From UHGV virus genome UHGV-0075096: DNA of 34,787 bases. One strand, written 5' to 3'. This DNA is from a virus. Under the pieces are notes generated by a model that saw nothing but the letters and a program-made list of their open reading frames with translations, ran no database searches and was not told the origin of the DNA. The translations under genes were made by a program, and so were the position numbers. Numbering within the stretch: position 1 is the stretch's first letter; each line of letters opens with the position of its first letter. This document shows positions 2,766 through 34,787 of the stretch, in pieces.

Positions 2766-3806
2766 CTAAGCTGTCGCGACATTTTTGCGACATTTTAGGG
2801 GGTTAAGTCGCACAGCATCTTCAAGGTGGCTTGGGGCGAAGTGGGCATAACGCATTGTCATGGTTATGTCAGCGTGGCCGAGAATTTTTTGCAAAACCAG
2901 AATGTTTCCGCCGTTCATCATAAAGTGGCTGGCAAATGTATGGCGCAGTACATGGGTAAGCTGGCCGGAGGGGAGTTCAATGCCTGCGCGTTCCAGAGCA
3001 GAGCGGAAAGCGTTGTAGCAGGGCTTGGGGAACAGAGCGCCTTTTGTTTCAGGTAATTCGGACAGAAGTTCATCATCAAGGGGAATTGTTCTGTTGCGCT
3101 TCCCTTTGGTTTTGACGAACGTGACTTTACCCCCGGCGATCTGGGAGCTTTTCAGCGTTGCCGCCTCATTCCACCTTGCGCCGGTAGCAAGGCAGATTTT
3201 GACAACTAATTCTAGGTACTTAACTTTGCTTCGTTTGCATTCCAGTAAAAGCCGATCAATTTCTTCGGTAGTGAGGAAAGCCATTTCGGTTTCATCAGTA
3301 CGATACTGTCTGACGTTTTCCAGTGGGTTGGGTGCTGACCATTCACCAATCCGTTTCAGTTCATTGAACATCGCTAGAAAGTAAGCATGTTCAAGGTTCA
3401 TAGTTTTCGGGGAAACCTTAGATACTCTGTTGGTGCGGGCATAATGCCCATCCAGCCTTTTAGCGCGGTAGGCTGTGAACAACTGGGCATTAAATTCTGT
3501 GGCCAGCGGGAATCCCATGCATTCCGCCGCCCAGGTCATAGCATCTTTACGCTTTTCGCCATTGCTCAAAGCTACGCCGTGGCGTTCATACCACATTGTT
3601 ATCAGATCTATTAAAGTTCGCTTGTCCTTCCCTTCACCCAGCCACGGAGCTGCGTCTACTTTCTGAAGCGTATGGTTTTCGAATGCCAGGGCTTCCCCTT
3701 TCGTGGCAAATTTTTTACGTATACGCTTCCCGTTCTTGCCATTACTGCGGTTGACGGTGTAGAAGTCGGCGATCCATTCGCCTGTAGGAAGTTTACGAAC
3801 GCTCAT
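2766..3806 (-). CDS. int: P2/186-type tyrosine integrase
   Basis: 346 aa; N-terminal region similar to P2 Int (GKNGKRIRKKF...), C-terminal catalytic motifs ATGARWNEA, HVLRHTFASH and the Y of MTMRYAHF; lies 2 bp downstream of cI as in 186. Confidence 0.9.
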   Translation of the reverse strand: MSVRKLPTGEWIADFYTVNRSNGKNGKRIRKKFATKGEALAFENHTLQKVDAAPWLGEGKDKRTLIDLITMWYERHGVALSNGEKRKDAMTWAAECMGFPLATEFNAQLFTAYRAKRLDGHYARTNRVSKVSPKTMNLEHAYFLAMFNELKRIGEWSAPNPLENVRQYRTDETEMAFLTTEEIDRLLLECKRSKVKYLELVVKICLATGARWNEAATLKSSQIAGGKVTFVKTKGKRNRTIPLDDELLSELPETKGALFPKPCYNAFRSALERAGIELPSGQLTHVLRHTFASHFMMNGGNILVLQKILGHADITMTMRYAHFAPSHLEDAVRLNPLKCRKNVATA

Positions 3807-3807
3807 T

Positions 3808-4425
3808 TTATTTTATCGTCAGAACAACGCGGCCTATGATTTTTATGTCGTCAATTCCGCAATCAAATGCCATACCAACACCGCTAACTCTGACTTTTCG
3901 TACCGGAATCCGTGTAAGAGTGCGGACGCTTGTTTTTCCTTCAACTTCAACCAACCAATCATCGTCATAAACTTCAGAATAAGACTGGTCAACAATGTAC
4001 TGAATAAGGCCATCCAGAACACAAATCGGTTGTTGCGGTAAGGGCTTGCCAGGCAGGAAGATGACTTTATCAAGCATAAGTGTGCCAGCGTCATAGAGTT
4101 GGCCATCAACAATCTTGCTGCGCGGCATTTTGAGTATGTCTAATTCATCATCATTAAATTTACGTCCCTGTCCTGTTGCCAGCCACTCCAGATTAGCGCC
4201 TGTTTCGGCTACGCATTTCACGACAATATCTGCCGGGAAAACTCCACGCTTGTAGCGTGAAGAAAGAGAACTGGCTGCCATGTCCAGATGTTCCGCGAGC
4301 TGTAACTTCTGCGTAAATCCGTAAGCCTCGATCACCCTGTCAAGAATCGGTGTGCTATCTACGTTTAGGTCGATTTTAAATGTGCTCATAGCGAATCCAT
4401 AAGTCTCGATTCGAGAAATTGCCAT
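3808..4425 (-). CDS. 186-type CI immunity repressor
   Basis: About 205 aa with an N-terminal HTH-like segment (EAYGFTQKLQLAEHLDMAASSLSSRYKRG) in the position and orientation of 186 cI, co-directional with int. Start is uncertain: ATG at 4425 chosen, alternatives GTG 4431 and ATG 4389. Confidence 0.7.
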   Translation of the reverse strand: MAISRIETYGFAMSTFKIDLNVDSTPILDRVIEAYGFTQKLQLAEHLDMAASSLSSRYKRGVFPADIVVKCVAETGANLEWLATGQGRKFNDDELDILKMPRSKIVDGQLYDAGTLMLDKVIFLPGKPLPQQPICVLDGLIQYIVDQSYSEVYDDDWLVEVEGKTSVRTLTRIPVRKVRVSGVGMAFDCGIDDIKIIGRVVLTIK

Positions 4426-4524
4426 TGACACTTCTCGAAACGCGAATTAATCTGGCTCCATATTTCGAATGTTGCCTTATATAACCCTGTATTGCCGTAC
4501 AGGTTAACTTGTGGAGTTTGCCTT
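4426..4524. promoter_or_regulatory. lysis-lysogeny switch region between divergent cI and apl starts
   Basis: 99-bp gap between the divergently oriented cI and apl start codons; in 186/P2 the lytic and lysogenic promoters and operators lie here. Individual -35/-10 elements were not resolved. Confidence 0.45.
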
Positions 4525-4746
4525 ATGCGTCCGAACATTACAATCATCATCCCAGAACCATACCTGCCTTTAGACGAGTATTGCCGCCGTACTGGCACCA
4601 ACAAAGAAACCGCCAGGAACCTGATCGAATACGGAAAATTACCTATTAAGCCGAAGGGTAAGCAGAAGAAAGGCCTGGTCGAAGTCAACATGGCCGCGCT
4701 CACTATTCAGGCTTTAAGTGAATGTGACATTTCGCTTAACGCGTAA
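4525..4746 (+). CDS. Apl/Cox-like excisionase and switch regulator
   Basis: 73-aa basic protein (MRPNITIIIPEPYLPLDEYCRRTG...) and first gene of the rightward early operon opposite cI, as 186 apl / P2 cox; GTGGAG RBS 8 nt upstream of the ATG at 4525. Confidence 0.65.
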   Translation: MRPNITIIIPEPYLPLDEYCRRTGTNKETARNLIEYGKLPIKPKGKQKKGLVEVNMAALTIQALSECDISLNA

Positions 4747-4776
4747 TCCATCCTACGGATTAGGGAGAGGCAAACA

Positions 4777-5280
4777 ATGTTTGATTACCAGACATCTAAA
4801 CATGCGCACTTTGATGCGGCTTGCCGAGCATTTGCAACTGAGCACAATCTTGAAGATGTGGCCGCTGCTGTTGGTATGAGGCCACAGATCTTGCGCAACA
4901 AACTGAACCCAGCGCAACCGCACCGCCTAACCTGTGATGAGCTTTTGGCTATCACGGATTACACCGAAGATGCACGTTTACTTGATGGGATGTTAGGTCA
5001 GATTAACTGCCTTCCATCCGTGCCGGTGAACAATGCCACTGAAGCCAACATGCAACTGTGTGCGCTTAGCGCCACTGCGTGTGTGGGAGCGATTGCTGGG
5101 GAAGCCGTATCAACTGGCCATATGACCGCCGCCCGCCGTGCTCAAATTTTGGATCGCGCCCGCGATGCAATCCGTAGCTTATCCGTGCTGGCTTATACCG
5201 TTGAAAGCCGTATTCACTCTGCGCCGGTTCTGGCTGCTGCGGTGGATCTGGTCACAACCCACGCCACCGGCCTGATGTGA
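4777..5280 (+). CDS. 186 CII-like transcriptional activator (CP76 family)
   Basis: 167 aa beginning MFDYQTSKHAHFDAACRAFA, the size and position of 186 cII directly after apl; GGGAGAGG RBS. Confidence 0.7.
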   Translation: MFDYQTSKHAHFDAACRAFATEHNLEDVAAAVGMRPQILRNKLNPAQPHRLTCDELLAITDYTEDARLLDGMLGQINCLPSVPVNNATEANMQLCALSATACVGAIAGEAVSTGHMTAARRAQILDRARDAIRSLSVLAYTVESRIHSAPVLAAAVDLVTTHATGLM

Positions 5281-5289
5281 GGGAACACT

Positions 5290-5463
5290 ATGAAAGCGTT
5301 TGTCACTTACCTGAAAAAAGAATCACCAGCCATGCAGTTGCCGAGTGGTTCAACGGGCTGGATAGAACTGCCGAACGGTCAGCGCTGGAACCCAGGCCAC
5401 ATTTACAAATTCAATGGCCAGCAGCCGCGCCGCCCGTGGTGGCGTCGTCTGATGGGGCTATAG
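5290..5463 (+). CDS. hypothetical small early protein (57 aa)
   Basis: Hand translation gives MKAFVTYLKKESPAMQLPSGSTGWIELPNGQRWNPGHIYKFNGQQPRRPWWRRLMGL; GAGGGA RBS 5 nt upstream; ends just before the strong RBS of the next gene; below the track cutoff. Confidence 0.35.
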   Translation: MKAFVTYLKKESPAMQLPSGSTGWIELPNGQRWNPGHIYKFNGQQPRRPWWRRLMGL

Positions 5464-5471
5464 GAGGCGTT

Positions 5472-5900
5472 ATGGCGATTAGCCAGGAACAGCAAAAGCG
5501 CGGGCTGGAGCATTTAAAACAGATCCGCCGCAAATACTTCAGCAAAAGCAGCGAGGCCGCTGAATGGTGGGACAACTTAACACCGGAGTGGCGCGGCGTA
5601 GTGCTTCATGCTGCTGCGGTTACATCTGGTACCGGGGCATTTAAAGCCCATTTAAGTAAGTGCTGCTGGCGGGAGCTTTATGACCGCCTGGGCTATCGGG
5701 ACATGATTCAACTGCGCCAGGGCATTTCACGGGCGCGGTTAACGTTTGAAGGTTTCGGCAGTTTACGTGACAGCGATTTTTCGAAGCGCACCGCGAACCG
5801 CCCGATCAAAAAAGTACATCCCATTTATAGCAGTGGCGGGGTGCAGATGGTGATCGCGCCGCATATCGTCCATAAGTTCCAGCAACAGGGGAATCACTAA
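5472..5900 (+). CDS. hypothetical phage early protein (142 aa)
   Basis: An internal ATG of ORF 5277..5900 is preceded by a consensus AGGAGG RBS (5462-5467); the upstream part of the track ORF overlaps the cII end and the 57-aa ORF and is probably not translated. Confidence 0.6.
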   Translation: MAISQEQQKRGLEHLKQIRRKYFSKSSEAAEWWDNLTPEWRGVVLHAAAVTSGTGAFKAHLSKCCWRELYDRLGYRDMIQLRQGISRARLTFEGFGSLRDSDFSKRTANRPIKKVHPIYSSGGVQMVIAPHIVHKFQQQGNH

Positions 5901-6301
5901 TGACCATTATTTCCGTTGAGGGCAAATCGTTGGGGGCAGAGCTGGCTGTGTGGGGCGTCCCGCATAACTACGCATTAGCGTTTGCAGAGAAAAGCACCAG
6001 TAAAAATGGGCGTATCGCTTTGCATCCGTTCTTCTTCAATGACACTGAACACATGACAAATCCGCGTCACTGGCTGGCGATCAATGCTGCTTTCTGGTGC
6101 TGCGTGTATCGCGAAGCGGAAAGCAAAGAAGCCCAGATAGAAGCGCTGGCGGGGATTCGTGCAATTTTCTATACAGCCGGGGCATTGGGAGTTGGCGAGA
6201 TAAAAGCGCTGATCCAGGAGTGGTGGCGGACAACCTATGAGCTGCACCTGATTCCGGCTCCGAACTACTCAGCCGCCACAGTACAACCCACTTTTCACTA
6301 A
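5900..6301 (+). CDS. hypothetical phage early protein (133 aa)
   Basis: ORF whose start overlaps the previous stop (TAATG), suggesting translational coupling in the early operon. Confidence 0.55.
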   Translation: MTIISVEGKSLGAELAVWGVPHNYALAFAEKSTSKNGRIALHPFFFNDTEHMTNPRHWLAINAAFWCCVYREAESKEAQIEALAGIRAIFYTAGALGVGEIKALIQEWWRTTYELHLIPAPNYSAATVQPTFH

Positions 6302-6368
6302 TTAACAGCCTGAATTTTTTGGCCACGGTTCAAGTGGCCGGGGATTCTTTTGCCTTAAGGAAACCAAA

Positions 6369-6602
6369 ATGCACATGACACGTCAGGATTTACCCGCAAC
6401 AAAATCAGGCACCGACCTGCTGGCCATGCTCACCAAAGCCACGCAGGAAGGTAAAGCCGCAGTTGCTGATCTGTGTTCCACCCGTCTGGATAAGCTGGCC
6501 ACTCATGCGGCCAATGAAGGTTTAAGCGCAACGGAAATCGTTGAGTTAATCCGCGAAGAAGCCGCAGCGATTTGCAGCAAAGGCGGTGCGGCATGGCAGT
6601 AA
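6369..6602 (+). CDS. hypothetical phage early protein (77 aa)
   Basis: ORF with an AAGGA RBS upstream; it follows a hairpin (GGCCAC-N7-GTGGCC, about 6322-6340). Confidence 0.45.
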
Positions 6603-6922
6603 AAATTCATGCGGTAAAAATTGCGCCAAAATATCTTGATGCAGTAGTGGCTGGTCAGAAAAAGGCCGAGCTGCGAAAAAACGATCGCGGGTATAAAACC
6701 GGTGATGTTCTTTCATTGTGCGAGTGGAAGCACGGGAAATACACCGGGCGAGAGTGGGCGGCAGTTATCACCCATGTTTTGCCGGTGAATGAAATTATCG
6801 CTGATACCGAAAATTGGGTGGTTTTATCTATCCGTTCGCTGTCACCGCTTGAAGTGCTGGAATACATCATTTCAAACGGTGTAACAGAGTCGTTAGTTGG
6901 CGGAGGTCAATATGGCCGTTAA
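6593..6922 (+). CDS. hypothetical protein, possibly ASCH/DUF3850-like
   Basis: 109 aa from the internal ATG ([40 protein letters not shown]...), a pattern reminiscent of small ASCH-fold phage proteins; overlaps the upstream gene end and the dam start. Confidence 0.4.
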
Positions 6923-7772
6923 AACTCCGCTTAAATGGGTGGGCAGCAAAGCCCGCCTCATGCCTAAGCTGCGTCCGCACCTTCCAGAAGGTAAACGCCT
7001 GGTTGAACCGTTCGCAGGTTCCTGCGCCGTCATGATGAATACGGATTATGACGAGTATCTGATCGCAGATGTGAATCCTGACCTGGTTAATCTTTATAAG
7101 GCGATGGCGTATCACACTAATGCGCTGCTGAATGAGCTGGAGATCCTGTTTTCTGCCGGTTCGTTAGGTGATGTAGAAAGCCGTGCCGTTTTCTATTACG
7201 CAGTGCGTGATGCTTTCAATCTTTCTGGTGGTAAGGCCGGTTCTGAATCTGTTGAAAATGCTGCGCGTTTCCTGTACCTGAACCGGCACTGCTTCAATGG
7301 TCTGTGTCGGTATAACCGTCGAGGCCAGTTCAACGTCCCGTTCGGTAAGTACAAAAAGCCTTATTTCCCCGCTGATGAAATCCGCGCCTTTGCTGAAAAA
7401 GCAAAACGCGCAACGTTCATTACTGCCCACTATTCAGAAACGCTTGATTTGGTTCGGGGCGGGAGTGACGTTGTTTACTGTGATCCGCCTTATCTGACTG
7501 ATGCCGACAATTTCACCGCTTACCATGAGCGCGGTTTTTCGCATATGGATCAGGGGCGGCTGGCGCGTAAACTGCGCCGTCTGGCGGAACGTGGGATTCC
7601 CGTTGTCGCGTCAAACAGCGATCTGGAAATGGTGCATTACCTGTATGCAGGGTTTGACGCCGTAAAGGTTAATGCGCCGCGTAGTGTCGGTGCGGCAGCT
7701 GCAAGCCCGAAAACGGCGGCAGAGCTGATTCTTAAATGGCCTTTACCGGCGACTTCTGAGGCCAGCGCATGA
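6912..7772 (+). CDS. dam: DNA adenine (N6) methyltransferase, Dam family
   Basis: AdoMet motif [10 protein letters not shown] and catalytic DPPY (VYCDPPY); strong resemblance to E. coli Dam over the N-terminus (KRLVEPF...NTDY...LIADVNPDL); GGAGG RBS before the ATG at 6912. Confidence 0.88.
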
Positions 7773-9790
7773 CGCTGGCAATAAACGAACAATGCTATGC
7801 CGTTGATGCCTGGAGGCGGGAAACTTTCGCACCAGGCACACCGGCAGACGCGACTATCACAGAACGCCGCCTGTGGGCTGTAAACCCGCAGGATTATGAA
7901 TGGCGATCCCGGTACCTGCATGAGATACCCGACTGGTTAGCCGGGTATTTTGGCCGTCGCTATGAAAAGCTTTTTTCTGGCCGTGACGGGCGTCGCCGTG
8001 CCAATACATTCCTGCGCAAAACAATCGGTGAGAATGTATTGCCACGTCTGCGCAAAGTGGCTGCGCGTTACTCGCTGGCCGCTGATGCTGCTGATCTTCC
8101 TTTTGGTAAGTCGCTGGAGCGCTTGCCGTCACTAGACCGTCCTGATCTTAAAAAACTGGCTGGCCAGGTATCTGGCTGGATTTCCCAGTCACTTTATGAC
8201 TTCACCGAACAGTTTGATTCCGGCACTGACGACGCCAGAGAGCTGCATCGCCGCACTCTGGAATCTTACCGCCATCTTTGTGCCTGTTGCCTGATGCTGA
8301 ATAACCAGCCGCCGTACTGGACTGAACATGAGGCCAATGAAGGTCAACTGGAAATGCGTAAGGCGGAATCCGGGATACTGCGCATGATGGCGCCGGAATG
8401 GTGGTACCTGCGTCTTAAACGTGCGCGTGATACGCAGCGCGAGCACATGGCCATTGCGGTGGGACAGGTGCAAAAAGCGGCCAGCGCTTATGTATCCCGC
8501 AAAACACTGGGTGAATGGATAGACCAGAAAAAGCGGAATCTGGAGTTCTTTAAAAAGTTTGATCTGCTGAATGATGAGGGGCTGCGCATTGCACTGGACA
8601 GCATGGTGCACCGCAGCGTTGCAAATCCGGCGATCCGTCGATGTGAACTAATAGTAAGAATGCGAGGGTTTGAAGATATGGCCAATGAAGAAGGGCTGGC
8701 CGGTGAGTTTTACACTATCACCGCGCCATCACGTTTCCATGCGGTTCACAGCAAAGGGGGCTTTGTATCGCAATGGGATGGAAGTACGCCGCAGGATACC
8801 CAGCGCTATTTATGCGGCGTATGGGCAAAAGCGCGTGCAGCGATCTCGCGTGCTGGTATCCATGTATTTGGGTTTCGGGTTGTTGAGCCTCACCATGACG
8901 GGACACCGCACTGGCATATGTTGCTTTTTATGCGTCCGCAGGACGTGGACACGGTACGCGATATTCTTTGTTATCACGCCAGAATTACCGATTCTGAAGA
9001 ACTGCAATCTGAAAAGGCGCTGAAGGCGCGTTTTCATGTTGAAGCTATCGATCCCGCCAAAGGTTCGGCCACGGGCTACATCGCGAAATACATTTCAAAA
9101 AATATTGATGGTTTTGCGCTGGATGGTGAGCAGGACGAAGAAACCGGCGAAAACCTGCGTGATATGGCTAAGTCCGTTTCCGCGTGGGCTTCACGCTGGC
9201 GTATTCGCCAGTTTCAGCAGATTGGTGGTGCGCCGGTAACCGTCTGGCGTGAGCTGCGTCGGTTGCGGGATCAGGTACTGACAGATCGCAGAATGGATGC
9301 GGTTCTGGCCGCTGCTGATGTCGGGGACTGGGCTGCATATACCCAGGCGCAGGGAGGTGCACTGGTTGCCCGCCGTGATCTGGTTGTTCGTCTGGCCTAT
9401 GAAATTACGGAACAGGGCAACGAATACGCGGAGGACGTGCAGCGCGTACAGGGTGTTTATTCTCCTTTGATTCCTGATTCAGAAGTTTGCACCCGTCTGG
9501 TTAAGTGGCAAAAGGTTGCGAAGTTGGCCGAAGCGCCAGCGGAGGCGGGTTTTTCTGGCGGCAACGCCGCCCCTTGGAGTTCTGTCAATAACTGTACGGA
9601 GGGGGGAACCCGCAGACGGTTAAAACTGGAATTACGCAGTCGGGGTTTTGAGGGTTCCGATGAAGAAATAGCCATTCTCCTGCGGGGTAGTGGTTTGATA
9701 TTTGGTCAGGGGGCACTGATTTACCGCAATGGGCGGTTGAAGGAAACACGAAACGAACCATTGCAGGAGCTTTGGCCGGGGTGGTTATAG
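7769..9790 (+). CDS. replication initiation endonuclease (P2 gpA / 186 A family, rolling-circle)
   Basis: 673 aa carrying the paired-tyrosine active-site motif GYIAKYISKN and the HxH-like PHWHMLLF motif; lies last in the early operon as in P2/186. Confidence 0.85.
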   Translation: MTLAINEQCYAVDAWRRETFAPGTPADATITERRLWAVNPQDYEWRSRYLHEIPDWLAGYFGRRYEKLFSGRDGRRRANTFLRKTIGENVLPRLRKVAARYSLAADAADLPFGKSLERLPSLDRPDLKKLAGQVSGWISQSLYDFTEQFDSGTDDARELHRRTLESYRHLCACCLMLNNQPPYWTEHEANEGQLEMRKAESGILRMMAPEWWYLRLKRARDTQREHMAIAVGQVQKAASAYVSRKTLGEWIDQKKRNLEFFKKFDLLNDEGLRIALDSMVHRSVANPAIRRCELIVRMRGFEDMANEEGLAGEFYTITAPSRFHAVHSKGGFVSQWDGSTPQDTQRYLCGVWAKARAAISRAGIHVFGFRVVEPHHDGTPHWHMLLFMRPQDVDTVRDILCYHARITDSEELQSEKALKARFHVEAIDPAKGSATGYIAKYISKNIDGFALDGEQDEETGENLRDMAKSVSAWASRWRIRQFQQIGGAPVTVWRELRRLRDQVLTDRRMDAVLAAADVGDWAAYTQAQGGALVARRDLVVRLAYEITEQGNEYAEDVQRVQGVYSPLIPDSEVCTRLVKWQKVAKLAEAPAEAGFSGGNAAPWSSVNNCTEGGTRRRLKLELRSRGFEGSDEEIAILLRGSGLIFGQGALIYRNGRLKETRNEPLQELWPGWL

Positions 9791-9867
9791 GTGTGCATGT
9801 GTGTGTAACACATTCATTTGTCAGTAGATGGCAGGAAATTAAATTTCACAATTCGTGCTTTAAGGTG

Positions 9868-9887
9868 TACTGTATGTATATCCAGTT
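9868..9887. promoter_or_regulatory. LexA (SOS) box-like operator
   Basis: TACTGTATGTATATCCAGTT matches the E. coli LexA consensus TACTGTATATATATACAGTA at 17 of 20 positions with the CTG-N10-CAG core intact; a TTCACA -35-like hexamer sits at 9845-9850. Confidence 0.55.
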
Positions 9888-9909
9888 ATTTATTGCTTGT
9901 GGGGGCTAA

Positions 9910-10116
9910 ATGGATCTTTTGGAGGCGTCGGCACAGCTGGAACGCATTGAGTTATTGGCCAAAATTGCCCATGTTTACGAAAGTAACCAGAGAGAAAAAA
10001 CAATCGCTTTGGCCTGGATTGGAGAGCTTGCGGGAGAGGTTCGCGAAATGGTTAAAAAGGAAGGGCAACGCCCCCAGAATGGGGGCATTTCAGGCGGCGG
10101 GAGTCGCTTTCAGTAG
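9910..10116 (+). CDS. small SOS-regulated protein, candidate antirepressor (positional analogue of 186 Tum)
   Basis: 68-aa ORF (MDLLEASAQLERIELLAKIAHVYESNQREK...) 23 bp downstream of the LexA-like box and after gene A, where 186 carries LexA-controlled tum. Function inferred from context only. Confidence 0.4.
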   Translation: MDLLEASAQLERIELLAKIAHVYESNQREKTIALAWIGELAGEVREMVKKEGQRPQNGGISGGGSRFQ

Positions 10117-26725: not shown

Positions 26726-27312
26726 TGACTTTTAAAATGAGTGAAACCGATCAAGCAGTTACTGTTTATAACCTGCGTTCCGACACGAATGAGTTTATTG
26801 GTTCGGGGGACGCTTTTATTCCCGCACATACCGGACTGCCAGCCAACTGCACCACAATAAAACCACCGGTAATCAAAGCAGGGTTTGTGGCAATTTTTGA
26901 TTCAGAGAAGCAAAGATGGATTTCCCGTGAGGATCATCGTGGCGAGGTGGTGTTTGATACAGAAAACGGTAATGAACTGGTGATCACCGAGCCAGGCGCT
27001 TACCCGGAAGGGACAACCACGTTAGCACCGGCTAATGCCTGGCAAAAATGGAATGGTAAGGCGTGGGTGGATGATGCGGAGGCCATGCGAATTGCATTAG
27101 TCAGCGAGGCAGACGCCGAAAAGAAAAGACTGCTTAAACAGGCCAATGACGCCATTGCCACATTGCAGGATGCCGTTGATTTAGACATGGCAACCGAAGA
27201 AGAAGCATTGCTGCTTACCGCATGGAAAAAATACCGCGTTTTACTGAATCGTATTCAACCGGAAGATGCGCCAGAAATTGTGTGGCCGGAGGTGCCTGGA
27301 AATGTGGCGTGA
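26725..27312 (+). CDS. tail fibre assembly protein (Tfa; P2 gpG-like)
   Basis: 195 aa ending with the motif typical of Tfa chaperones (WKKYRVLLNRIQPEDAPEIVWPEVP); directly downstream of the fibre gene. Confidence 0.8.
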   Translation: MTFKMSETDQAVTVYNLRSDTNEFIGSGDAFIPAHTGLPANCTTIKPPVIKAGFVAIFDSEKQRWISREDHRGEVVFDTENGNELVITEPGAYPEGTTTLAPANAWQKWNGKAWVDDAEAMRIALVSEADAEKKRLLKQANDAIATLQDAVDLDMATEEEALLLTAWKKYRVLLNRIQPEDAPEIVWPEVPGNVA

Positions 27313-28027
27313 AGCACGTCTGGCCTTCACGGATTCAGTTGCTGCGCTGAACTGTTCGATCGTCCCTGCGCATCCGTGGATTTATGGGCTGGGACAGCAG
27401 ACAGCGAACGGGGCATATCTCAGCCCGGTTAATGCCGTTCGCTATCTTGCTGAACGCCTGGCCGGAACAGGGGGGAATGCGGATGTGGTGATTATGATGG
27501 TCACCGGACAGACGCAGGAAAACTTTATGGCCAGCCTGAATAACCTGGTCGGGATTTTCCCCGCCCCGGCATTCACGCAGGTCAAACGGCTGGCGCAATC
27601 CGCCGCAGTGCTGGCTATTGAAAAGATGCAGATTCCGGCGAAAACCGCCGCTGCGTTACCTGCGTCCATTCCGCTGTCTGTATCAACCAGCAGGGCAGCT
27701 TTATCTGCTGCGGCAATCAGCCAGGCACAAAAGGCGGCGGGTGCCGGGTTTGATATCGAAGGGCTGAAAAAACAGCTGGGCGAGTTCACGCAACTGCGTG
27801 ACCAGCTTATCAGTGATGTGGCCAGCGGCCTGAATGATTTACAGGGGAAGAGTGCCAGAGCGTGGGTTTTTACTGCCAGCGGAGACACCGGCACCACGTT
27901 ACTGGAACTGGTGAAGGACATTCCGCAGCAGTCTGCCGTTTACACCGCAGCCATGATGCTGGTTGGCGATAATCTTGATGGAATAAAGGGAATGATTCAT
28001 GACTTCGATCCCGACACTGGCGCTTAA
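27302..28027 (+). CDS. hypothetical protein (241 aa) downstream of Tfa
   Basis: Internal ATG with a GGAGG RBS; Ala-rich; no family recognised by eye; occupies the position corresponding to the P2 Z/fun cargo locus. Confidence 0.5.
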   Translation: MWREARLAFTDSVAALNCSIVPAHPWIYGLGQQTANGAYLSPVNAVRYLAERLAGTGGNADVVIMMVTGQTQENFMASLNNLVGIFPAPAFTQVKRLAQSAAVLAIEKMQIPAKTAAALPASIPLSVSTSRAALSAAAISQAQKAAGAGFDIEGLKKQLGEFTQLRDQLISDVASGLNDLQGKSARAWVFTASGDTGTTLLELVKDIPQQSAVYTAAMMLVGDNLDGIKGMIHDFDPDTGA

Positions 28028-28544
28028 TGGCGAGGCTATCCAGCTGAAAAACATGCGGGTGACTGTTTCACAGCAATTTCAGGATAAAGATCAGTCCGGC
28101 CAGACCAGCGCCACAACAAAATCAGAGCAGGGAGCAAAGGGAAAGGAACTGCGGATCAGCGGTGAAATACCTTTTAAACAGCCTGAAATACTGAAGCGTA
28201 TTTTTGAGCTTGCCAGCGCTACCGATGCCAGTGGTAATCGTCAAAAGTACCGTGTGGCGCATGAAGTTGCCCGTGCTGTTAATTTTCGTGAAGCAACGTT
28301 CAGCGGAATGCTGGATGCACCCCAGCAGGACGGGAAAATGTCCTGGCTGGTGACGTTCACACTGGCGGAACATATCAGCGTGCAGGAAAAGCGAGAGGCC
28401 AGAGCAACAGGTAAGACGACCGCAAAAAAACAGACTGCCGGTAGTGCGGGACAGGCCGGTGGCCAGTCTGCCGGAGAAGATGAAGAAAAACTGACGTGGT
28501 TTGAACGCAAGGTGCTGAAGCCCGTCAATGATGCTTTGGGTTAA
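27999..28544 (+). CDS. hypothetical tail-associated protein (181 aa)
   Basis: ORF coupled to the downstream hub/spike gene (TAATG overlap); start uncertain because it overlaps the upstream gene by 29 nt. Confidence 0.45.
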   Translation: MTSIPTLALNGEAIQLKNMRVTVSQQFQDKDQSGQTSATTKSEQGAKGKELRISGEIPFKQPEILKRIFELASATDASGNRQKYRVAHEVARAVNFREATFSGMLDAPQQDGKMSWLVTFTLAEHISVQEKREARATGKTTAKKQTAGSAGQAGGQSAGEDEEKLTWFERKVLKPVNDALG

Positions 28545-30247
28545 TGATGAAACCAGTAAAACGCCTTTACCTTTCAACGGATGAAGTTCACCTGGTGGAT
28601 GCCAGCCTGGTACTGGAGCTGAACAGCTGCGGCCGGGGCTTCATCACCGCAGAGACAACAACCGATTACACCGGAAAACTGGTGCGGCTGGATGTAGGGT
28701 ATACCGATCTGCTTTTGCGCTGGTTTACGGGGTACGTGGAGCGATCGCAGCCCGCAGAAAACGGTTTTCAGCGTCTGTTCATTCGTGAGCTGGTAGGTGT
28801 GTTTGAAAGGATGTGGCCGTGCTCATTTCAACATCCAACTTTACGCGAGGTTGCCAGCTGGCTGGAAGAAAACAGTGGTATCTCGGTCAGTGTGCCTGAT
28901 GCACAGTACAGCGATACCCCCATCCCACATTTTACCCATAACGGTACCGGCTATCAGTTGCTGAACAATCTGGGAAGGGCGTTCAGTATCCAGGATTACA
29001 TCTGGTACCAGTTGCCTGATGGTTCGCTTTACGTCGGTGGCGCAGAAAAGTCACTGTTTGCCGGTCGTCCCGTAGAAATCCCGTCAGAGTTCAGCCAGGG
29101 GGCTGCTGGTGGTAACTCTGTGACATTACCAGTGATCCAGACTATGCGGCCAGGGGTGGAGATGAACGGTGAACGCGTGACTAAAGTTCACCTGACTAAT
29201 GACACGATGGCGATCACATGGACGCCGAGAAACCGCGCAACGGGTAAACCTTTGCAGAAAACACCGGCGCAACGGCAGATTGAAAGCCATTACCCGGAAC
29301 TGGCATCCGGGCTTCATTTGCCAAAGACGGCCAGAGTCGTGGCGCATTCAGAGCCAGTAAAAAGCGGTAACTTTGCCGATCCCTTCCGGCCACGTTACGC
29401 CGTGGACGTGCAACTGCTTGACGCAGACGGAAACCCGGACAATCAGACGCCTGTTTACTCAGCGGTGCCGCTGCCGGTACCAATGGCCGGGAATGATTCA
29501 GGTATGTTTCAGTTCCCGCCTGAAGGGACGCTGGTTGAGGTCGCATTCACAGGAGGCAGACCGGATAAACCCTTTATCAGGCAGACGCTGCCGGATGGCA
29601 CCAGTCTGCCGGACGTTAAACCCGGTGAGCAATTACAGCAGCAGCGGGAAGAAGTATCCCTGAGGGTGACTCAGGCGGGTGACTGGGTAAGGCAGACCGA
29701 TCAGACCATCAGCGAAACATCAATGGTGCGAACCGTAAAAGCCGATACAGAACAGCGCGAACTGGTCAGCCGTGAAACCACGGTGAAAGCCACGGATAAA
29801 ACCACGGTACTGGGAACCGCCACATTGCTGGCCGGAGCCATCCAGCAGGTAAGCGCCGGTGATTATAGCCAGGCGGTGAAAGGTAACAGGCTGGCCAGTA
29901 TTGAAGGAAACGAAGAAACGGACATAGCAGGACAGCAGTCCACTAAAGTGGGCGGTGCTGTAGCCGTGGAGGTTGGCGAAAGTCTGACAGAGAAGATTGC
30001 CGCACTGCGTAAATCAGTGGCTGCTGGCGGTCAGCAGGTCATGGGGGCAACTGTCCATATTGGCAGTGAGAGCATCAACGCCCTGACCATGATGCTGGAT
30101 ACCATTGATTTACTGGCAGAGCTTGCGCAGCAATGCGCGAACCATTCGCACCCCACCGTTGGAACTCCAACCAATGCCGCCGCGTTCACACTGACGGCGA
30201 CGAAAGCCGGGCAGACCCGGAGCAAATACCAGAATATAATTGCCTGA
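28544..30247 (+). CDS. putative baseplate hub/central spike protein (gpD/gpV-like)
   Basis: 567 aa, last gene of the tail module and followed by a strong terminator; the C-terminal region contains CANHSHPTVG (an HxH motif as in spike apex domains). Assignment is inferred from position and motifs. Confidence 0.45.
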   Translation: MMKPVKRLYLSTDEVHLVDASLVLELNSCGRGFITAETTTDYTGKLVRLDVGYTDLLLRWFTGYVERSQPAENGFQRLFIRELVGVFERMWPCSFQHPTLREVASWLEENSGISVSVPDAQYSDTPIPHFTHNGTGYQLLNNLGRAFSIQDYIWYQLPDGSLYVGGAEKSLFAGRPVEIPSEFSQGAAGGNSVTLPVIQTMRPGVEMNGERVTKVHLTNDTMAITWTPRNRATGKPLQKTPAQRQIESHYPELASGLHLPKTARVVAHSEPVKSGNFADPFRPRYAVDVQLLDADGNPDNQTPVYSAVPLPVPMAGNDSGMFQFPPEGTLVEVAFTGGRPDKPFIRQTLPDGTSLPDVKPGEQLQQQREEVSLRVTQAGDWVRQTDQTISETSMVRTVKADTEQRELVSRETTVKATDKTTVLGTATLLAGAIQQVSAGDYSQAVKGNRLASIEGNEETDIAGQQSTKVGGAVAVEVGESLTEKIAALRKSVAAGGQQVMGATVHIGSESINALTMMLDTIDLLAELAQQCANHSHPTVGTPTNAAAFTLTATKAGQTRSKYQNIIA

Positions 30248-30259
30248 CCATGATAACAC

Positions 30260-30282
30260 GCCCGCATAATGCGGGCTTTTTT
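30260..30282 (+). terminator. rho-independent terminator of the tail operon
   Basis: GCCCGCA-TAA-TGCGGGC hairpin followed by TTTTTT, 13 bp after the stop at 30247. Confidence 0.85.
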
Positions 30283-30692
30283 ATACCCTTCTCCAGACGC
30301 AGCAGAACGCACCCTCAGCACTTTAGGCAACAAATTAACCCAACTCAACACACATAAAAGATCGTGCGCATGGCGCTGCGTTGGCGCGACGATGCACCGA
30401 CAAAATAAATCTTTCGCAGACAAAAACGGCGCTACACCGCACCCGCCTGCGGTTTCTGGATCTGGAAAATTTTTCTGTTTTATTTTTCTACAAAACAGAC
30501 CGCCAGACCGCGCCGCTGCTGGCGGCTTTGCGGAGAACTGAAACTGAAATGATTGAAAAGGATTTCACTTTTTTTCAGTGAAAAGGATCTGTGAAGGATC
30601 GATGGGAAAATATAACTATCAGAATATAAAAGAGAAATTGAATTTTAGGTGGCGTTTGTGGATCGTTAGTTAAAGGGGGGGGGATATTCTGT

Positions 30693-30724
30693 AAAAAAGC
30701 CCGCGACATCAGATGTGGCGCGGG
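30693..30724 (-). terminator. rho-independent terminator downstream of the glycosyltransferase-like gene
   Basis: On the minus strand, hairpin CCCGCGCCACATC-A-GATGTCGCGGG (one 2-nt bulge) followed by TTTTTT; 40 bp beyond the stop at 30764. Confidence 0.65.
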
Positions 30725-30763
30725 ATGGATAGAAATTTATTCTTATAGAACAACTGAAAAAAA

Positions 30764-31480
30764 TTACTTTAAACTGAGTTTAAAATTTTTGAATTTACCA
30801 TACAGGGTATCGCGTACAGAAAAGGAAGGAACCCAATTGAATCCTGTTCGCCATGGGCGAGGACTACCGTGAAAGCATACAACTGAAACATCATCAGGAA
30901 CTTTGCCAGTAGCATAATCTGATGCCAAGTCAGGGTTGTAACCTATCATTTTACGTGTGGCTATATGGCATTTGTAACTAACAACAGATCCGGGAATTAT
31001 ATCTTGCCACAATACAGGTTTCATGACGCTACCCAGAAACCCCTGATCACCCCATTTATCTTCTGTTTGGCATTCATGCATATTTTTTTCGGGGTCAGTC
31101 CAGAACGCATCCCAAACATATTGTTTGATAGACGCAGGAATGAACATAATGGATGAGTTAACCCTGGAAGGGTGGTTAAACTCCCGCAGCATAGTGAACT
31201 CTTTCGCCGCATCAAAGATTTTGATATCACCAGTTATGACAACATCAACGTCAAAATAAAGCAGATCCTTATCACCTATTACCGGATGGTTTGGATTAAA
31301 AAGCTCAATCTTAGACCACCAACCTGGAAGGTTGTGCATTAACGGTGCGGTTTCAACACCAGGGATACTTCCAGCATCAGTTAAGCAAATTGAAGGTATG
31401 CCTTTAAATTGGCTATGCAGCCATTGTGCGTGTTTGGGGGTAAATTCTTTACCGCATTTAAGGACGGATACAATCAGCAT
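30764..31480 (-). CDS. putative GT-A fold glycosyltransferase (GT8-like motifs)
   Basis: 238 aa; DxD-type motif (LLYFDVDVVITGD) and a C-terminal H-x2-G-x2-(K/R)-P-W motif (FHGSPRPW) characteristic of retaining GT8 enzymes; GC visibly lower than the prophage core. Confidence 0.45.
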   Translation of the reverse strand: MLIVSVLKCGKEFTPKHAQWLHSQFKGIPSICLTDAGSIPGVETAPLMHNLPGWWSKIELFNPNHPVIGDKDLLYFDVDVVITGDIKIFDAAKEFTMLREFNHPSRVNSSIMFIPASIKQYVWDAFWTDPEKNMHECQTEDKWGDQGFLGSVMKPVLWQDIIPGSVVSYKCHIATRKMIGYNPDLASDYATGKVPDDVSVVCFHGSPRPWRTGFNWVPSFSVRDTLYGKFKNFKLSLK

Positions 31481-31660
31481 ATGGGAATCCCATTCTTTAG
31501 AGCAATAGTGTGCATTTTTTGAACATCGGCAATACTAAAATAAATAGTCAGGGCATAATTTTCTTAGGTAAGAGTCATGATGCCTCATGCCATTCCTTAC
31601 GTAAAGCTAGGCAGACTCAGCATAATGAGGGGACAAAAAGGGGACGCTGACCACTACAAA

Positions 31661-31689
31661 CAAAAAAGCCACTCCGTCAGAAGTGGCTT
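31661..31689 (-). terminator. rho-independent terminator (minus strand)
   Basis: On the minus strand, AAGCCACT-N8-AGTGGCTT hairpin followed by TTTTTT. Confidence 0.6.
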
Positions 31690-31843
31690 AATTATATGAT
31701 TATAAAGCTAAAATTTGGTGGCCCCTTGGACTTGAACCAGCGCCCGGGCGATTATAAGTCTTATGGTGTAACCTTTTGATATTTATATATAAATTTTATT
31801 TTTATGTGAATTTTAAGGATCTCTAACCGCTTTATTTTTGGCT

Positions 31844-31874
31844 AAAAAACCCGCAGTTGTAGCAATGATGCGGG
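31844..31874 (-). terminator. rho-independent terminator closing the minus-strand cargo operon
   Basis: On the minus strand, CCCGCA...TGCGGG hairpin followed by TTTTTT (plus-strand A6 at 31844-31849); about 220 bp downstream of the last long ORF. Confidence 0.55.
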
Positions 31875-32093
31875 TTGAGTTAGTCTTTAAAACTGAAATT
31901 GATCAGCCATAGCGTTCATAGGTAGCTGCGTATGCATTAACGTTTTTTAGGTGGTGGGGCTACTTGCTGCGTTTGCTGCGTTTGCCGTGGTGGTTGATAA
32001 CCATTGTTCTGCTGATTTGGCCTACTTGATGGTTGATATCCCTCATTTATAGGTTGCCAGCCATCATATTTAGTATTGTTTGCCGGTTTTTCT

Positions 32094-32744
32094 TCAGCCA
32101 TTTTTTACCTCACTATTGTTGGGAGAATGTAATTTTACCTCAATAAACTCAACACTTTCTATTTCATTAGTCAATATTATTATGCCTAATGTATCAGCTA
32201 GTTCGTGATCGAAATCGCCATTCTCATCAAGCGCCCAATGTTTCTCAAGATAGATTTGTTCGGGTTCTGGACTATTGGATGCAAATGAGTCACTTCCATA
32301 AAAACCACCATATTTTTTACCGTTTTTTAGTGTTACCAATACCCAGCAGCGTTGTCTGGTTGAGAAGAAGTAGTCCCAAGAGCGCCCTATAGGGTGTGGA
32401 AGAATATTTTTGACTTTTTCCCAGTTACGAATTTTTAGCAATGCAACAGGTAATAGTACAGGTATTACAATTAAAACTAAAAAGTAAAAAATGTAATATA
32501 AAATAGGGTGTTTCAAAAAAATGTCATTTGTTTCAATTAGATAAATTGGTATTAAAAGAAATGAAAAATTTATGCAACTATATGAAACAACGTCAATTAA
32601 AACTTTTGATGTATCCAAATCAATTGATGGGTGAAATAGTCTGTAAACTCTCATGCTGATAAATCCGGGCATAATGAACAGTACAAATAAAAACAATTTC
32701 CCCTTCTCTAAAATGTCCATTTTAATTCCTTTTGCATAAATCAA
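32094..32744 (-). CDS. uncharacterised membrane protein (3 predicted TM helices plus a roughly 100-aa soluble C-terminal domain)
   Basis: 216 aa; hydrophobic segments [26 protein letters not shown] and [20 protein letters not shown]; its ATG overlaps the upstream stop in an ATGA coupling; AT-rich codon usage. Confidence 0.6.
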
Positions 32745-33766
32745 TCATCTTTATTCATCAAATCATGGTGATATCCACAAACACCTCCAAAATCTTGTTC
32801 GTCTTGGGAAAGTGTTGTGCCACATATATAACATTCATTATAGTCAACTTCATAACCACACCACCGACATTTTTGCTCAGCTAGAATAAATGTATCATGG
32901 TTACAGTTAAAACATTCTTCATAAGTCGGTTCATCGCCATCAGGAGGCCAATAAAAAAACTCATCTTCAAAAACCTGCATAAGCAAAGGCGTAAATAAAT
33001 TGATATTCCCGCATGCAACGCACAAATACTTAAAATCGCTTTCAAAATCTTCTACTGTCAGACCTTCTTCTAAACTATCTTGTGAGGCTTTTATAAGTTT
33101 AGAACCACATTTATCGCAGCAACATTCGGGTAAAAATTCCATCATGCCTTCTGGAATACCTGCATACTCCCATGTTGACCTACACTCATATAATTTCGAA
33201 TTATAAAAAGTTTTGTGTTCCAGCATTGTACTCCAGGAACTGCCTAAAACATCTTGTGGAATTTTATCAAGTTCATTTGTTATGAAACTTTCAAGAACTG
33301 GAAATAAATCGGCGACAAAACCAGCAAGCTCGCCGAAAGTGTTTTGAGGATGTAAGTGTTCAAGATGATTTCGGCAATCCTGAAGTTTTTCAATGGCTGG
33401 CCAATCAACTTTTATGTTGAATTTATGAAAGCGCTCCTTTATGCCACAAACATCAATAGTCGATTTTTTAAACTTTCCTTCAGGTTTCCATTCTACCCCA
33501 CCTTTCCCATCGGGGTGGGGAAGCATTTTAGACGGTGGGTTATGTATTAGCACATACGCATGCTCAGGCGTGTCAACAGATTTGGCGATTTTATATTTGA
33601 ATAGTAATAATAAACCAGCGTAAAGATTACGTATGGATGAAAGAGTTCGCAATGAGTTATCAGGTTGTTGGGATAACTGGAAATCTTCAATCCCAAGTTG
33701 TATTGAAGCAATTGCGTTGTCATATAACTTATCCGCATCTAAGGTTAGTGAGGTTGTGTTACTCAT
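32741..33766 (-). CDS. uncharacterised protein with C-terminal multi-CxxC zinc-ribbon-like region
   Basis: 341 aa; C-terminal third contains CCCDKC, CVAC, CFNC, CRWC, CYIC and CGYHH; N-terminal domain contains an R-N-x3-H motif (RNHLEH); AAGGA RBS. Confidence 0.6.
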
Positions 33767-33840
33767 TGTTTGCTCTATCCTTAGTAAATAAAGTTGGATT
33801 ACATATTATGAAAAAAAGTTGGTGCATTCAATCAGTCATT

Positions 33841-34737: not shown

Positions 34738-34787
34738 GTAGGTGTCTCCTGACTTTTGGCTACAAATTATCACATTTTAGAGAAAGT

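Follow-up and report, generated by a model that had tools for sequence, protein, structure and literature searches.

The DNA between positions 6593 and 7772 contains two overlapping genes, a small DUF3850/ASCH gene and a dam gene, both of which belong to the CI-repressed early (lytic) operon of a 186/P2-like Peduoviridae prophage. Positions are those of the window, by which we mean the whole 34,787-nucleotide stretch of viral DNA that was analyzed (UHGV-0075096). The interval delimited in the initial annotation is exact, running from the ATG of the DUF3850 gene to the stop codon of dam. The genes and their junctions are:

6369 to 6602, plus strand: DUF2732 gene, 77 amino acids, upstream neighbor in the same operon (PF10809 at 4.4e-12).
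6593 to 6602, plus strand: 10-nt overlap of the DUF2732 stop and the DUF3850 start, ATGGCAGTAA, with AAGGCGGTG at 6580-6588.
6593 to 6922, plus strand: DUF3850/ASCH (PUA-like) gene, 109 amino acids (PF12961, PF04266, phrog_986, AF2 and Foldseek).
6912 to 6922, plus strand: 11-nt overlap of the DUF3850 stop and the Dam start, ATGGCCGTTAA, with GGAGG at 6902-6906, read from the sequence.
6912 to 7772, plus strand: gene for an orphan Dam-family (D12 class) N6-adenine DNA methyltransferase, 286 amino acids, predicted specificity GATC (PF02086, TIGR00571, PADLOC).
7769 to 7772, plus strand: 4-nt overlap of the Dam stop and the gpA start, ATGA, read from the sequence.
7769 to 9790, plus strand: gpA replication endonuclease gene, 673 amino acids, downstream neighbor (PF05840 at 3.2e-104, phrog_91 at 3e-256).

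The gene order and the protein families are those of a 186-like Peduoviridae early operon. The order on the plus strand is apl-like, cII, fil, orf142, orf133, DUF2732, DUF3850, dam, gpA, with no gaps from DUF2732 through gpA, and the CI repressor and integrase genes are divergent from the operon. We found Phage_CI_repr, Phage_integrase, Phage_CP76 (cII), Phage_186_Fil, Phage_GPA, Ogr_Delta, and Phage_portal, with ogr and portal lying beyond the operon. Nucleotide identity to Quadragintavirus phages was 92%, and the DUF3850/Dam junction in one of them, ESSI2_ev040, is the same as that in the window. The overlap with its GGAGG is probably a translational-coupling junction, such that the two tightly packed genes would be coupled in translation. 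These arrangements bear out the early proposal of an early-operon dam that is directly upstream of the replication gene and overlaps a small upstream gene.

A consensus scan of the plus strand from 4300 to 9800 detected no internal sigma-70-like promoter. An internal terminator that would isolate DUF3850 and dam from the upstream operon was considered and rejected; the hairpin at 6316-6344 fits the pattern and its folding energy is ordinary (z = -1.1). Nor did we find hidden genes or RNAs within 6593-7772: the other-frame and minus-strand open reading frames there matched no Pfam family, and an Rfam search of the window found nothing. No attachment-site repeats of at least 14 nt were found between 2151-2800 and 27000-34787.

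The larger gene encodes a Dam homologue that is strongly predicted to be specific for GATC. Its product matched PF02086 (MethyltransfD12) over positions 1-252 of 253 (E 1.5e-65, 221.9 bits against a cutoff of 22) and the TIGR00571 'dam' model (268.5 bits against 114.85). The claimed strong similarity to the host enzyme held as well, with 41.5% identity to E. coli Dam (EcoDam; 2G1P) over 275 aligned residues (phmmer E 1.5e-59). On the host-Dam equivalog model NF008152 (NCBIfam) the protein scored 256.2 bits, under the cutoff of 441, which marks it as a phage paralogue of Dam rather than a copied host gene. The FAGS and DPPY motifs noted at the outset are at residues 34-37 and 191-194, in the order (motif I N-terminal to motif IV) of the alpha class:

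7011 to 7022, plus strand: motif I, F34-A-G-S37, in the AdoMet-binding FxGxG region, aligned with EPFVGAGS of EcoDam.
7293 to 7352, plus strand: DNA-recognition hairpin, residues 128-147, in which F128, N129, L131, R133, P143, K146, and Y147 correspond to EcoDam Y119, N120, L122, R124, P134, R137, and Y138.
7482 to 7493, plus strand: catalytic motif IV, D191-P-P-Y194, aligned with EcoDam D181-P-P-Y184.

The prediction of GATC specificity follows from retention of the residues that contact GATC, whose roles in EcoDam have been described (PMC4417163). EcoDam K9, N120, L122, R124, P134, and Y138 are identical in the phage protein (K8, N129, L131, R133, P143, and Y147), and the two changes at contact positions are conservative (Y119 to F128, which keeps the aromatic ring, and R137 to K146). 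The acidic residue of the AdoMet site is also retained (D53, equivalent to EcoDam D54). Motif I reads F34-A-G-S-C38, with the final Gly of EcoDam FVGAG replaced by Cys. The phage enzyme thus resembles E. coli chromosomal Dam (PDB 2G1P, 4RTJ) in fold family, motif order, FxGxG and DPPY motifs, and GATC-contact residues, and differs from it in having small insertions at residues 84-88 and 106-110 and another C-terminal tail, in being phage-borne, and, judging from the layout, in being repressed in the lysogen.

The dam gene is an orphan, as originally suggested, because there is no restriction enzyme gene among its neighbors (DUF2732, DUF3850, and gpA). The best PADLOC model for the protein was the orphan MTase PDLC03729 (3.4e-91), with a type II MTase model a close second. 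Membership in a defense system was considered and rejected; PADLOC gave no match for DUF3850, and the orphan methylase has no partner gene.

The smaller gene encodes a protein that we confidently predict to fold as an ASCH/PUA-like beta-barrel, in agreement with the ASCH-type fold first assigned to it. The 109-residue product matched PF12961 (DUF3850; positions 1-77 of 77, E 6.3e-23, 81.2 bits against a cutoff of 22.9), PF04266 (ASCH; E 3.8e-5, 24.8 bits against 21.2), and phrog_986, 'RNA-binding protein' (3.3e-38). For both genes of the pair, the family-profile E-values are far past chance level. The AF2 model of the DUF3850 protein (pLDDT 85.9, pTM 0.75) was most similar in Foldseek to 3IUW, a DUF3850 protein of Enterococcus faecalis V583 called 'activating signal cointegrator' (E 5e-9, target-normalized TM 0.92, rmsd 1.5 A), and further matches were YqfB, PH0355, and ZmASCH. 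The two DUF3850 proteins share the Pfam family, a compact beta-barrel, 32% identity, and a KxxExRKNDR motif. 3IUW has 83 residues, and the window protein adds a C-terminal helix (residues 85-95) and a disordered tail (98-109). The signature of the family is at:

6653 to 6676, plus strand: ASCH signature G21-Q-K23-K-A-E26-L-R28 (GxKxxExR, with the K-x-x-E-x-R triad), from conservation and alignment to YqfB.

Among 24 DUF3850 homologues, E26 was invariant and G21, K23, and R28 were at least 90% conserved. The triad K23/E26/R28 corresponds to the K-x-x-(T/E)-x-R motif of two ASCH-fold proteins, the E. coli ac4C amidohydrolase YqfB (K21/T24/R26) and human EOLA1. Having Glu, it is of the EOLA1/TRIP4 type, and this form is catalytic in EOLA1 (bioRxiv 10.64898/2026.08.01.741249). 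The likeness to YqfB and EOLA1 is otherwise distant (E 0.16-0.24, 17-19% identity, TM about 0.5), and nothing hints at a common substrate. Against its relatives, the DUF3850 gene had a dN/dS of 0.05-0.2. Our literature search found no functionally tested member of DUF3850. The protein most probably binds, and possibly hydrolyzes, either a nucleotide or a base flipped out of RNA or DNA, although this role is a guess at the level of the family.

The DUF3850-dam pair is real, ordinary, and already known and annotated. Both proteins occur residue for residue in many E. coli assemblies, where NCBI names them 'DUF3850 domain-containing protein' and 'DNA adenine methylase', and near-identical versions are present in Salmonella and Citrobacter. 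A dam gene ahead of gpA is common in Peduoviridae. The Dams of the Quadragintavirus phages ESSI2_ev040, ev015, and ev129, of Cronobacter ESSI-2, Fels-2 (STM2730), and SopEPhi, and of the 186-like retron-Ec67 prophage are of the same D12 class and are encoded at the same position, in the early operon directly ahead of and overlapping gpA. Amino-acid identity to the window Dam is 89-94% for the ESSI2_ev phages, 82% for ESSI-2, and about 50-53% for Fels-2 and SopEPhi.

The gene ahead of dam differs among these elements, and the pairing of DUF3850 with Dam is fixed only in the lineage of the window. Within that lineage, dam came immediately after DUF3850, and gpA after dam, in 79 of the 79 close viral loci that had downstream sequence, these being close relatives with at least 66% amino-acid identity. 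The position is occupied by DUF3850 in the window, by an exonuclease gene and DUF3850 in ev040, and by a gene for a DksA-like zinc finger in Fels-2. DUF3850 is missing from some E. coli prophages, such as L002, where DUF2732 directly overlaps dam. Conversely, DUF3850 is spread across 480 phage records, and T7-like and other phages have it without an adjoining dam. The P2-type phage 9W (an Escherichia phage) encodes a DUF3850 homologue in its early region, annotated as Orf91 (47% identity over 85 residues, E 5e-24), that has 151 residues and lies after gpA, and there is no dam ahead of gpA in this phage.

We think it very probable that the locus is a coupled early-operon pair comprising an anti-restriction GATC Dam and an optional DUF3850 accessory. 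According to this explanation, the early operon would be silent in the lysogen, as its layout suggests, and would be turned on by induction or infection, with Dam made alongside the rolling-circle initiator gpA. Host Dam would be limiting for high-copy DNA, and the phage Dam would maintain full methylation of the roughly 130 GATC sites as the phage DNA replicates rapidly, so that in the next host the progeny would resist methylation-sensitive GATC restriction (of the MboI/DpnII type). The phage Dam would also remove the hemimethylated GATC on which MutH and SeqA act. DUF3850 would be an accessory cassette inserted ahead of dam that Dam does not require.

Protection from defenses that cut unmethylated GATC is what is usually inferred for a phage Dam, and it fits the conserved contact residues. 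In published work, host Dam is limiting when DNA is present at high copy, and phage Dam serves in anti-restriction (bioRxiv 10.1101/2020.06.22.160242), and when phage Bas51 lost its own GATC methylase, GATC methylation of its genome was nearly gone (PMC12548924). Carrying a Dam can also cost the phage, as the enzyme triggers some retrons (PMC12548924; bioRxiv 10.1101/2020.06.22.160242). The Bas51 enzyme, like T4/T2 Dam and P1 Dam, is an orphan phage GATC methylase that acts on phage DNA, is anti-restriction, and can trigger retrons. These phages differ from that of the window in being virulent or in having other genome contexts, and T4 Dam itself is distant (phmmer E about 2e-13, over residues 121-235 only). 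The window contains 131 GATC sites versus 150 expected, a ratio that is unremarkable among 4-bp palindromes. We therefore rejected both avoidance and enrichment of GATC in the prophage, and the sequence shows no trace of having been selected by GATC-directed restriction. The hosts E. coli, Salmonella, and Citrobacter are ordinarily dam+, and any gain from a second Dam is therefore an assumption.

The initial annotation also suggested that the phage Dam might alter methylation-dependent regulation of the host. Such a role in the lysogen is less likely, because dam sits in the CI-repressed lytic operon and because a Dam homologue in a prophage of E. coli EC958 was reported to be transcriptionally inactive (PMC4659465).

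A role for the phage Dam mainly in regulating the phage life cycle, rather than in anti-restriction, is possible but unlikely. GATC methylation might control phage promoters, nicking and replication by gpA, or the stability of lysogeny, as has been reported for other interactions of phage or host Dam with prophages. The apparent co-transcription of dam with gpA and the overlap of the two genes would fit such a role. In many genera of Peduoviridae, a Dam of about 50% identity is conserved ahead of gpA (Fels-2, SopEPhi, RE2010, Cartapus, and Klebsiella and Yersinia phages), suggesting that its function is connected with replication, and in one Salmonella study prophage behavior was reportedly under Dam-dependent control. 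However, P2-type phages, here phage 9W, replicate by gpA without a Dam at this position, and P2 and 186 themselves are not known to have one there, so Dam is dispensable to the replication machinery. Furthermore, there is no standout cluster of GATC sites around the operon or in gpA, and in dam+ hosts the sites are already methylated by host Dam.

It is improbable that the DUF3850 protein works with Dam, be it as a PUA-like protein that reads, sequesters, or hydrolyzes N6-methyladenine, whether within DNA or as free m6dAMP, as a counter to m6dAMP-sensing defense (Metis, PUA-Cal-HAD), or as a factor that guides or limits Dam. The invariant order and overlapping junction in the 79 close loci favor a partnership, but those loci are closely related and the linkage may reflect shared ancestry. 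In addition, the sister prophages and Fels-2 have Dam without DUF3850, and 9W, the T7-like phages, and others have the reverse.

We looked for the association beyond the lineage, using 80 distant DUF3850 loci that were reduced to 38 non-redundant ones, scanning the neighboring proteins with Pfam and taking the genes three to five away as the control. There were about 15 DNA-methylase matches within five genes on either side, but methylases were no more common one or two genes away (6/147) than three to five genes away (9/147). We therefore rejected an operonic DUF3850-methylase partnership across phages; the counts indicate co-location only at the level of the module.

PUA-clan domains of two recently described defense systems, Metis and PUA-Cal-HAD, bind m6dAMP, YTH domains read m6A, and a survey of ASCH proteins linked them by context to restriction-modification systems in which adenines are modified. 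On the other hand, the structural likeness of the DUF3850 model to YTH is weak (Foldseek E about 0.05, TM about 0.4), and temperate P2-like phages are not known to degrade the host chromosome, the step that generates m6dAMP. The most specific form of the idea, that DUF3850/ASCH is an N6-methyladenine-specific PUA-like protein made together with Dam that reads methylated or hemimethylated GATC DNA or binds or destroys free m6dAMP, is more doubtful still. The PUA-clan fold, the intact catalytic-type triad, the constant presence of dam as the next gene in the lineage, and the sharing of a module with DNA methylases in unrelated phages are all compatible with this form of the idea.

Finally, it is highly improbable that the methyltransferase is inactive or recognizes a site other than GATC: the score under the NF008152 cutoff, the limited identity to EcoDam, the two contact changes, and the FAGSC form of motif I could be read in that way, but the other base-contact residues are identical and the changes conservative, DPPY and D53 are present in a full-length PF02086 match, relatives are intact across genera, consistent with purifying selection (dN/dS values being for DUF3850 and not for dam), and the Dam homologue of the 186-related retron-Ec67 prophage was reported to be functional (Hsu et al. 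1990, as cited in PMC7826664).

The pair matters little by itself. Phage-borne orphan Dams have been known for decades, including those of the 186/P2-like prophages Fels-2 and retron-Ec67. The locus is nevertheless a convenient place to study the function of DUF3850, in a compact P2-like context that is easy to manipulate and in which natural variants have or lack the gene. A phage Dam is double-edged, in that it is anti-restriction yet triggers retrons and supplies the m6dAMP signal to PUA-domain defense, and for this reason a PUA-clan gene right ahead of dam is worth attention. If the DUF3850 protein did bind or destroy m6dAMP, it would be a counter-defense against Metis and PUA-Cal-HAD.

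The protein encoded by dam is a Dam-family adenine methyltransferase. It matched PF02086 (D12-class N6-adenine MTase) over its full length (E = 1.5e-65) and scored 268.5 bits against TIGR00571 'dam' (cutoff 114.85); the top PADLOC model was an orphan methyltransferase (3.4e-91). Among PDB sequences, phmmer matched it to E. coli Dam (2G1P, 1.5e-59), DpnM (6e-34) and T4 Dam (~2e-13). The protein has F34-A-G-S37 as motif I and D191-P-P-Y194 as its catalytic motif, and these motifs and the PF02086 and TIGR00571 matches bear out the initial annotation, which had proposed a Dam homologue with FAGS and DPPY motifs. The protein is 41.5% identical to E. coli Dam in a global alignment (275 positions). 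Its score against the chromosomal-Dam equivalog model, 256, is under the cutoff of 441; it is therefore a paralogue belonging to the phage, not one captured from the chromosome of the present host.

The residues that recognize GATC are largely the same as those of the host enzyme. In E. coli Dam, K9 and Y138 contact the first base pair, L122 and P134 the third, and R124 the fourth, with hydrogen bonding by N120 and intercalation by Y119 (PMC4417163). The residues K9, Y138, L122, P134, R124, N120 and Y119 correspond to K8, Y147, L131, P143, R133, N129 and F128 in the phage protein; six of the seven are unchanged, and F128 keeps the aromatic character of Y119. Lys replaces R137 of E. coli Dam. 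Because the recognition residues are kept, GATC specificity is strongly predicted. There is no endonuclease gene near dam, so Dam is an orphan methylase.

The dam gene is in the early operon of a 186/P2-like (Peduoviridae) prophage within an enterobacterial chromosome.

Genes of the prophage around dam
2766-3806, minus strand: integrase
3808-4389, minus strand: CI repressor
4525-4746, plus strand: apl-like gene
4777-5280, plus strand: cII (PF06892)
5290-5463, plus strand: fil, a 186 Fil homologue by public gene calls and Pfam
5472-5900, plus strand: orf142, 142 aa, phrog_33841
5900-6301, plus strand: orf133
6369-6602, plus strand: DUF2732 gene
6593-6922, plus strand: DUF3850 gene, 109-aa ORF with ATG start
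6912-7772, plus strand: dam (METHYLTRANSFERASE), 286-aa ORF with ATG start
7769-9790, plus strand: gpA, replication endonuclease (PF05840, E = 3e-104)
beyond gpA, minus strand: ogr, portal and terminase genes

This gene order and the closest named phages (Quadragintavirus ESSI2_ev040, ev015 and ev129; ~92% nucleotide identity across this segment) show that the initial placement of dam in the early operon, just upstream of the replication gene, was correct. The interval 6593-7772 needed no correction either, as its ends are exactly the ATG of the 109-aa ORF and the stop codon of the 286-aa ORF. In our mechanical ORF list both ORFs began further upstream, at TTG codons; public gene calls for identical sequences use the ATG starts. 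Shine-Dalgarno-like sequences precede the DUF3850 ATG (AAGGCGGTG, 6580-6588) and the dam ATG (GGAGG, 6902-6906). The genes overlap by 10 nt (DUF2732 stop and DUF3850 ATG), 11 nt (DUF3850 and dam) and the ATGA at 7769-7772 (dam stop and gpA start). Alternative-frame and antisense ORFs in 6593-7772 matched no Pfam family, and a scan of the whole window found no Rfam family. A mechanical 207-aa ORF at 5277-5900 (plus strand) was rejected as a single gene; fil, in another frame, and the 142-aa gene are there instead. A scan for promoter consensus sequences detected nothing sigma-70-like on the plus strand inside the operon. The sole terminator-like hairpin, GC-rich and followed by a T-rich tract (6316-6344, plus strand), is in the 67 nt that separate orf133 from DUF2732, and its folding energy was no better than that of shuffled sequence (z = -1.1).

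The left host flank encodes an outer-membrane protein of the Ail/Lom type (44-565) and, on the minus strand, a sulfatase-family protein (615-2198); in identical loci, the integration region is marked by the small gene mntS, which lies between the integrase and the sulfatase gene. A search for repeats of at least 14 nt shared by 2151-2800 and 27000-34787 gave none, and the right prophage boundary was not found. A 340-aa protein (32741-33766, minus strand) matched the PADLOC candidate defence model PDC-S64 (3e-47), and its gene overlaps a DUF6338 gene (32094-32744, minus strand); the genes in 32094-33766 are possibly defence cargo, situated at the right end of the prophage or past it. Further along is a 309-aa uncharacterised ORF (33841-34773). 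A 237-aa protein (30764-31480, minus strand) had no Pfam match and matched phrog_1962, 'glycosyltransferase' (moron/host-takeover category, E = 1.6e-80); its gene may have an accessory role, for example in serotype conversion. The interval between ogr and the small ORF that follows gpA is suggested as a second variable hotspot, of the defence type. It is empty in the window (9790-10090), and an otherwise identical prophage in GCA_032453555.1 (9353-10390 of that locus) has a 345-aa DUF2806/Abi_alpha gene inserted there.

The protein encoded upstream of dam has the ASCH-type fold that had been suggested for it. The 109-aa protein matched Pfam DUF3850 (PF12961, E = 6.3e-23, covering the full model) and passed the ASCH model PF04266 (24.8 bits, cutoff 21.2). 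It is in phrog_986, 'RNA-binding protein', a label inherited from ASCH predictions. An AlphaFold2 model made with 24 homologues (pLDDT 85.9, pTM 0.75) predicted a six-stranded barrel, two helices and a disordered tail (98-109). With Foldseek, the model matched 3IUW, a structural-genomics entry for an E. faecalis DUF3850 protein (E = 5e-9, TM 0.92, rmsd 1.5 A); further PDB matches were E. coli YqfB (an ac4C amidohydrolase), PH0355 and Zymomonas ASCH, and YTH structures matched weakly (E ~0.05). The protein carries the ASCH signature GxKxxExR (G21-QKKAEL-R28), in which E26 is invariant and K23 and R28 are conserved in at least 90% of the 24 homologues. Positions K23/E26/R28 align with K21/T24/R26 of YqfB, and the signature positions correspond to the catalytic K/E/R triad of EOLA1 (bioRxiv 10.64898/2026.08.01.741249). 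The dN/dS of 0.05-0.2 against relatives indicates a real gene under purifying selection.

The DUF2732-dam interval appears to be a cassette insertion site. We compared 6560-6925 of the window with 3700-4650 of the ESSI2_ev040 locus (L001) and 3700-3740 of the E. coli JNE25-001 prophage and found three natural states: DUF2732-dam (JNE25-001), DUF2732-DUF3850-dam (the window) and DUF2732-exonuclease-DUF3850-dam (ESSI2_ev040). At all cassette junctions, an ATG overlapping the upstream stop comes after an AAGGnGGTGC-like ribosome-binding sequence, and this shared junction may be the recombination boundary. We read DUF3850 as one optional occupant. In the close relative ESSI2_ev129 (23800-24648), the Dam gene has a cytosine methyltransferase of the dcm type annotated next to it, so the slot around dam can hold a second methylase.

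The pairing of DUF3850 with dam looks strong among close relatives but does not hold more broadly. We surveyed 80 viral contigs encoding DUF3850 relatives (66-96% identity to the window protein), and dam and then gpA came next in all 79 that had downstream sequence. The linkage is broken in sister prophages, with Fels-2-type Dams, in phage 9W and at distant DUF3850 loci. In the JNE25-001 prophage, DUF2732 directly overlaps dam without DUF3850, which is present in only 7 of 30 complete E. coli genomes matching this segment; others (L001) have a 3'-5' exonuclease and DUF3850 before dam. Dam homologues of ~50% identity are upstream of gpA in Fels-2, SopEPhi, RE2010, SEN8, Cartapus, and Klebsiella and Yersinia phages, where dam is preceded by a gene for a DksA-like zinc finger or an exonuclease. 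In the P2-type phage 9W, the DUF3850 homologue Orf91 (2501-2956; 47% identity over 85 aa, E = 5e-24) is immediately downstream of gpA, and Orf83, not dam, is upstream. By this homology, P2-type Orf91, long unassigned, belongs to the ASCH/PUA-like clan. We found DUF3850 relatives in 480 phage records, among them T7-like, T1-like, Enterococcus and Listeria phages. At 38 non-redundant distant loci, DNA methylases were 6/147 neighbours one to two genes away and 9/147 at three to five genes; DUF3850 is therefore in the same genome module as methylases, without specific adjacency.

Two defence systems, Metis and PUA-Cal-HAD, have recently been found to sense m6dAMP derived from Dam by means of PUA-clan domains. 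On the evidence above, we think it unlikely that the PUA-clan protein encoded directly before dam reads or removes this signal. Our literature search found no tested function for any DUF3850 protein; the sole substantial mention was of ParB-CTPase-DUF3850 fusions, common in prophages. We commit only to a predicted nucleotide- or nucleic-acid-binding barrel, possibly hydrolytic, which Dam does not need.

Both proteins are in NCBI residue for residue, in E. coli, as 'DNA adenine methylase' and 'DUF3850 domain-containing protein', and their 90%-identity clusters include annotated Salmonella and Citrobacter proteins. Exactly this Dam sequence occurs on 132 contigs, and exactly this DUF3850 sequence on 206; many assemblies have identical loci. 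The work on retron-Ec67 had already made known a Dam gene in a 186-related prophage (Hsu et al. 1990 and Dodd & Egan 1996, as cited in PMC7826664), and the Fels-2 record notes the likeness of its own Dam to the Ec67 enzyme. Based on these entries and earlier Dams, we conclude that the finding is already known and ordinary. The initial interpretation is supported for identity, and function we infer.

The analysis establishes which genes these are, their motifs and overlaps, their place in the operon and the orphan status of Dam. In a lysogen, the operon would be shut by CI; a Dam homologue encoded by a prophage of E. coli EC958 was reported to be transcriptionally inactive (PMC4659465). Upon induction or infection the operon would be on, so Dam would be made along with gpA. 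When DNA is present in many copies, host Dam becomes limiting, and phage Dam is considered to counter restriction (bioRxiv 10.1101/2020.06.22.160242); loss of the GATC methylase of phage Bas51 nearly abolished GATC methylation of its genome (PMC12548924). Based on these reports, the most likely role of Dam would be to fully methylate fast-replicating phage DNA at its ~130 GATC sites, which would clear hemimethylated sites and shield progeny from methylation-sensitive GATC restriction. The window shows neither avoidance of GATC nor enrichment for it (131 sites observed, 150 expected), so the sequence itself lends no extra support to this role. Dam activity can also be costly to the phage, since some retrons are triggered when msDNA is methylated at GATC (PMC12548924; bioRxiv 10.1101/2020.06.22.160242).
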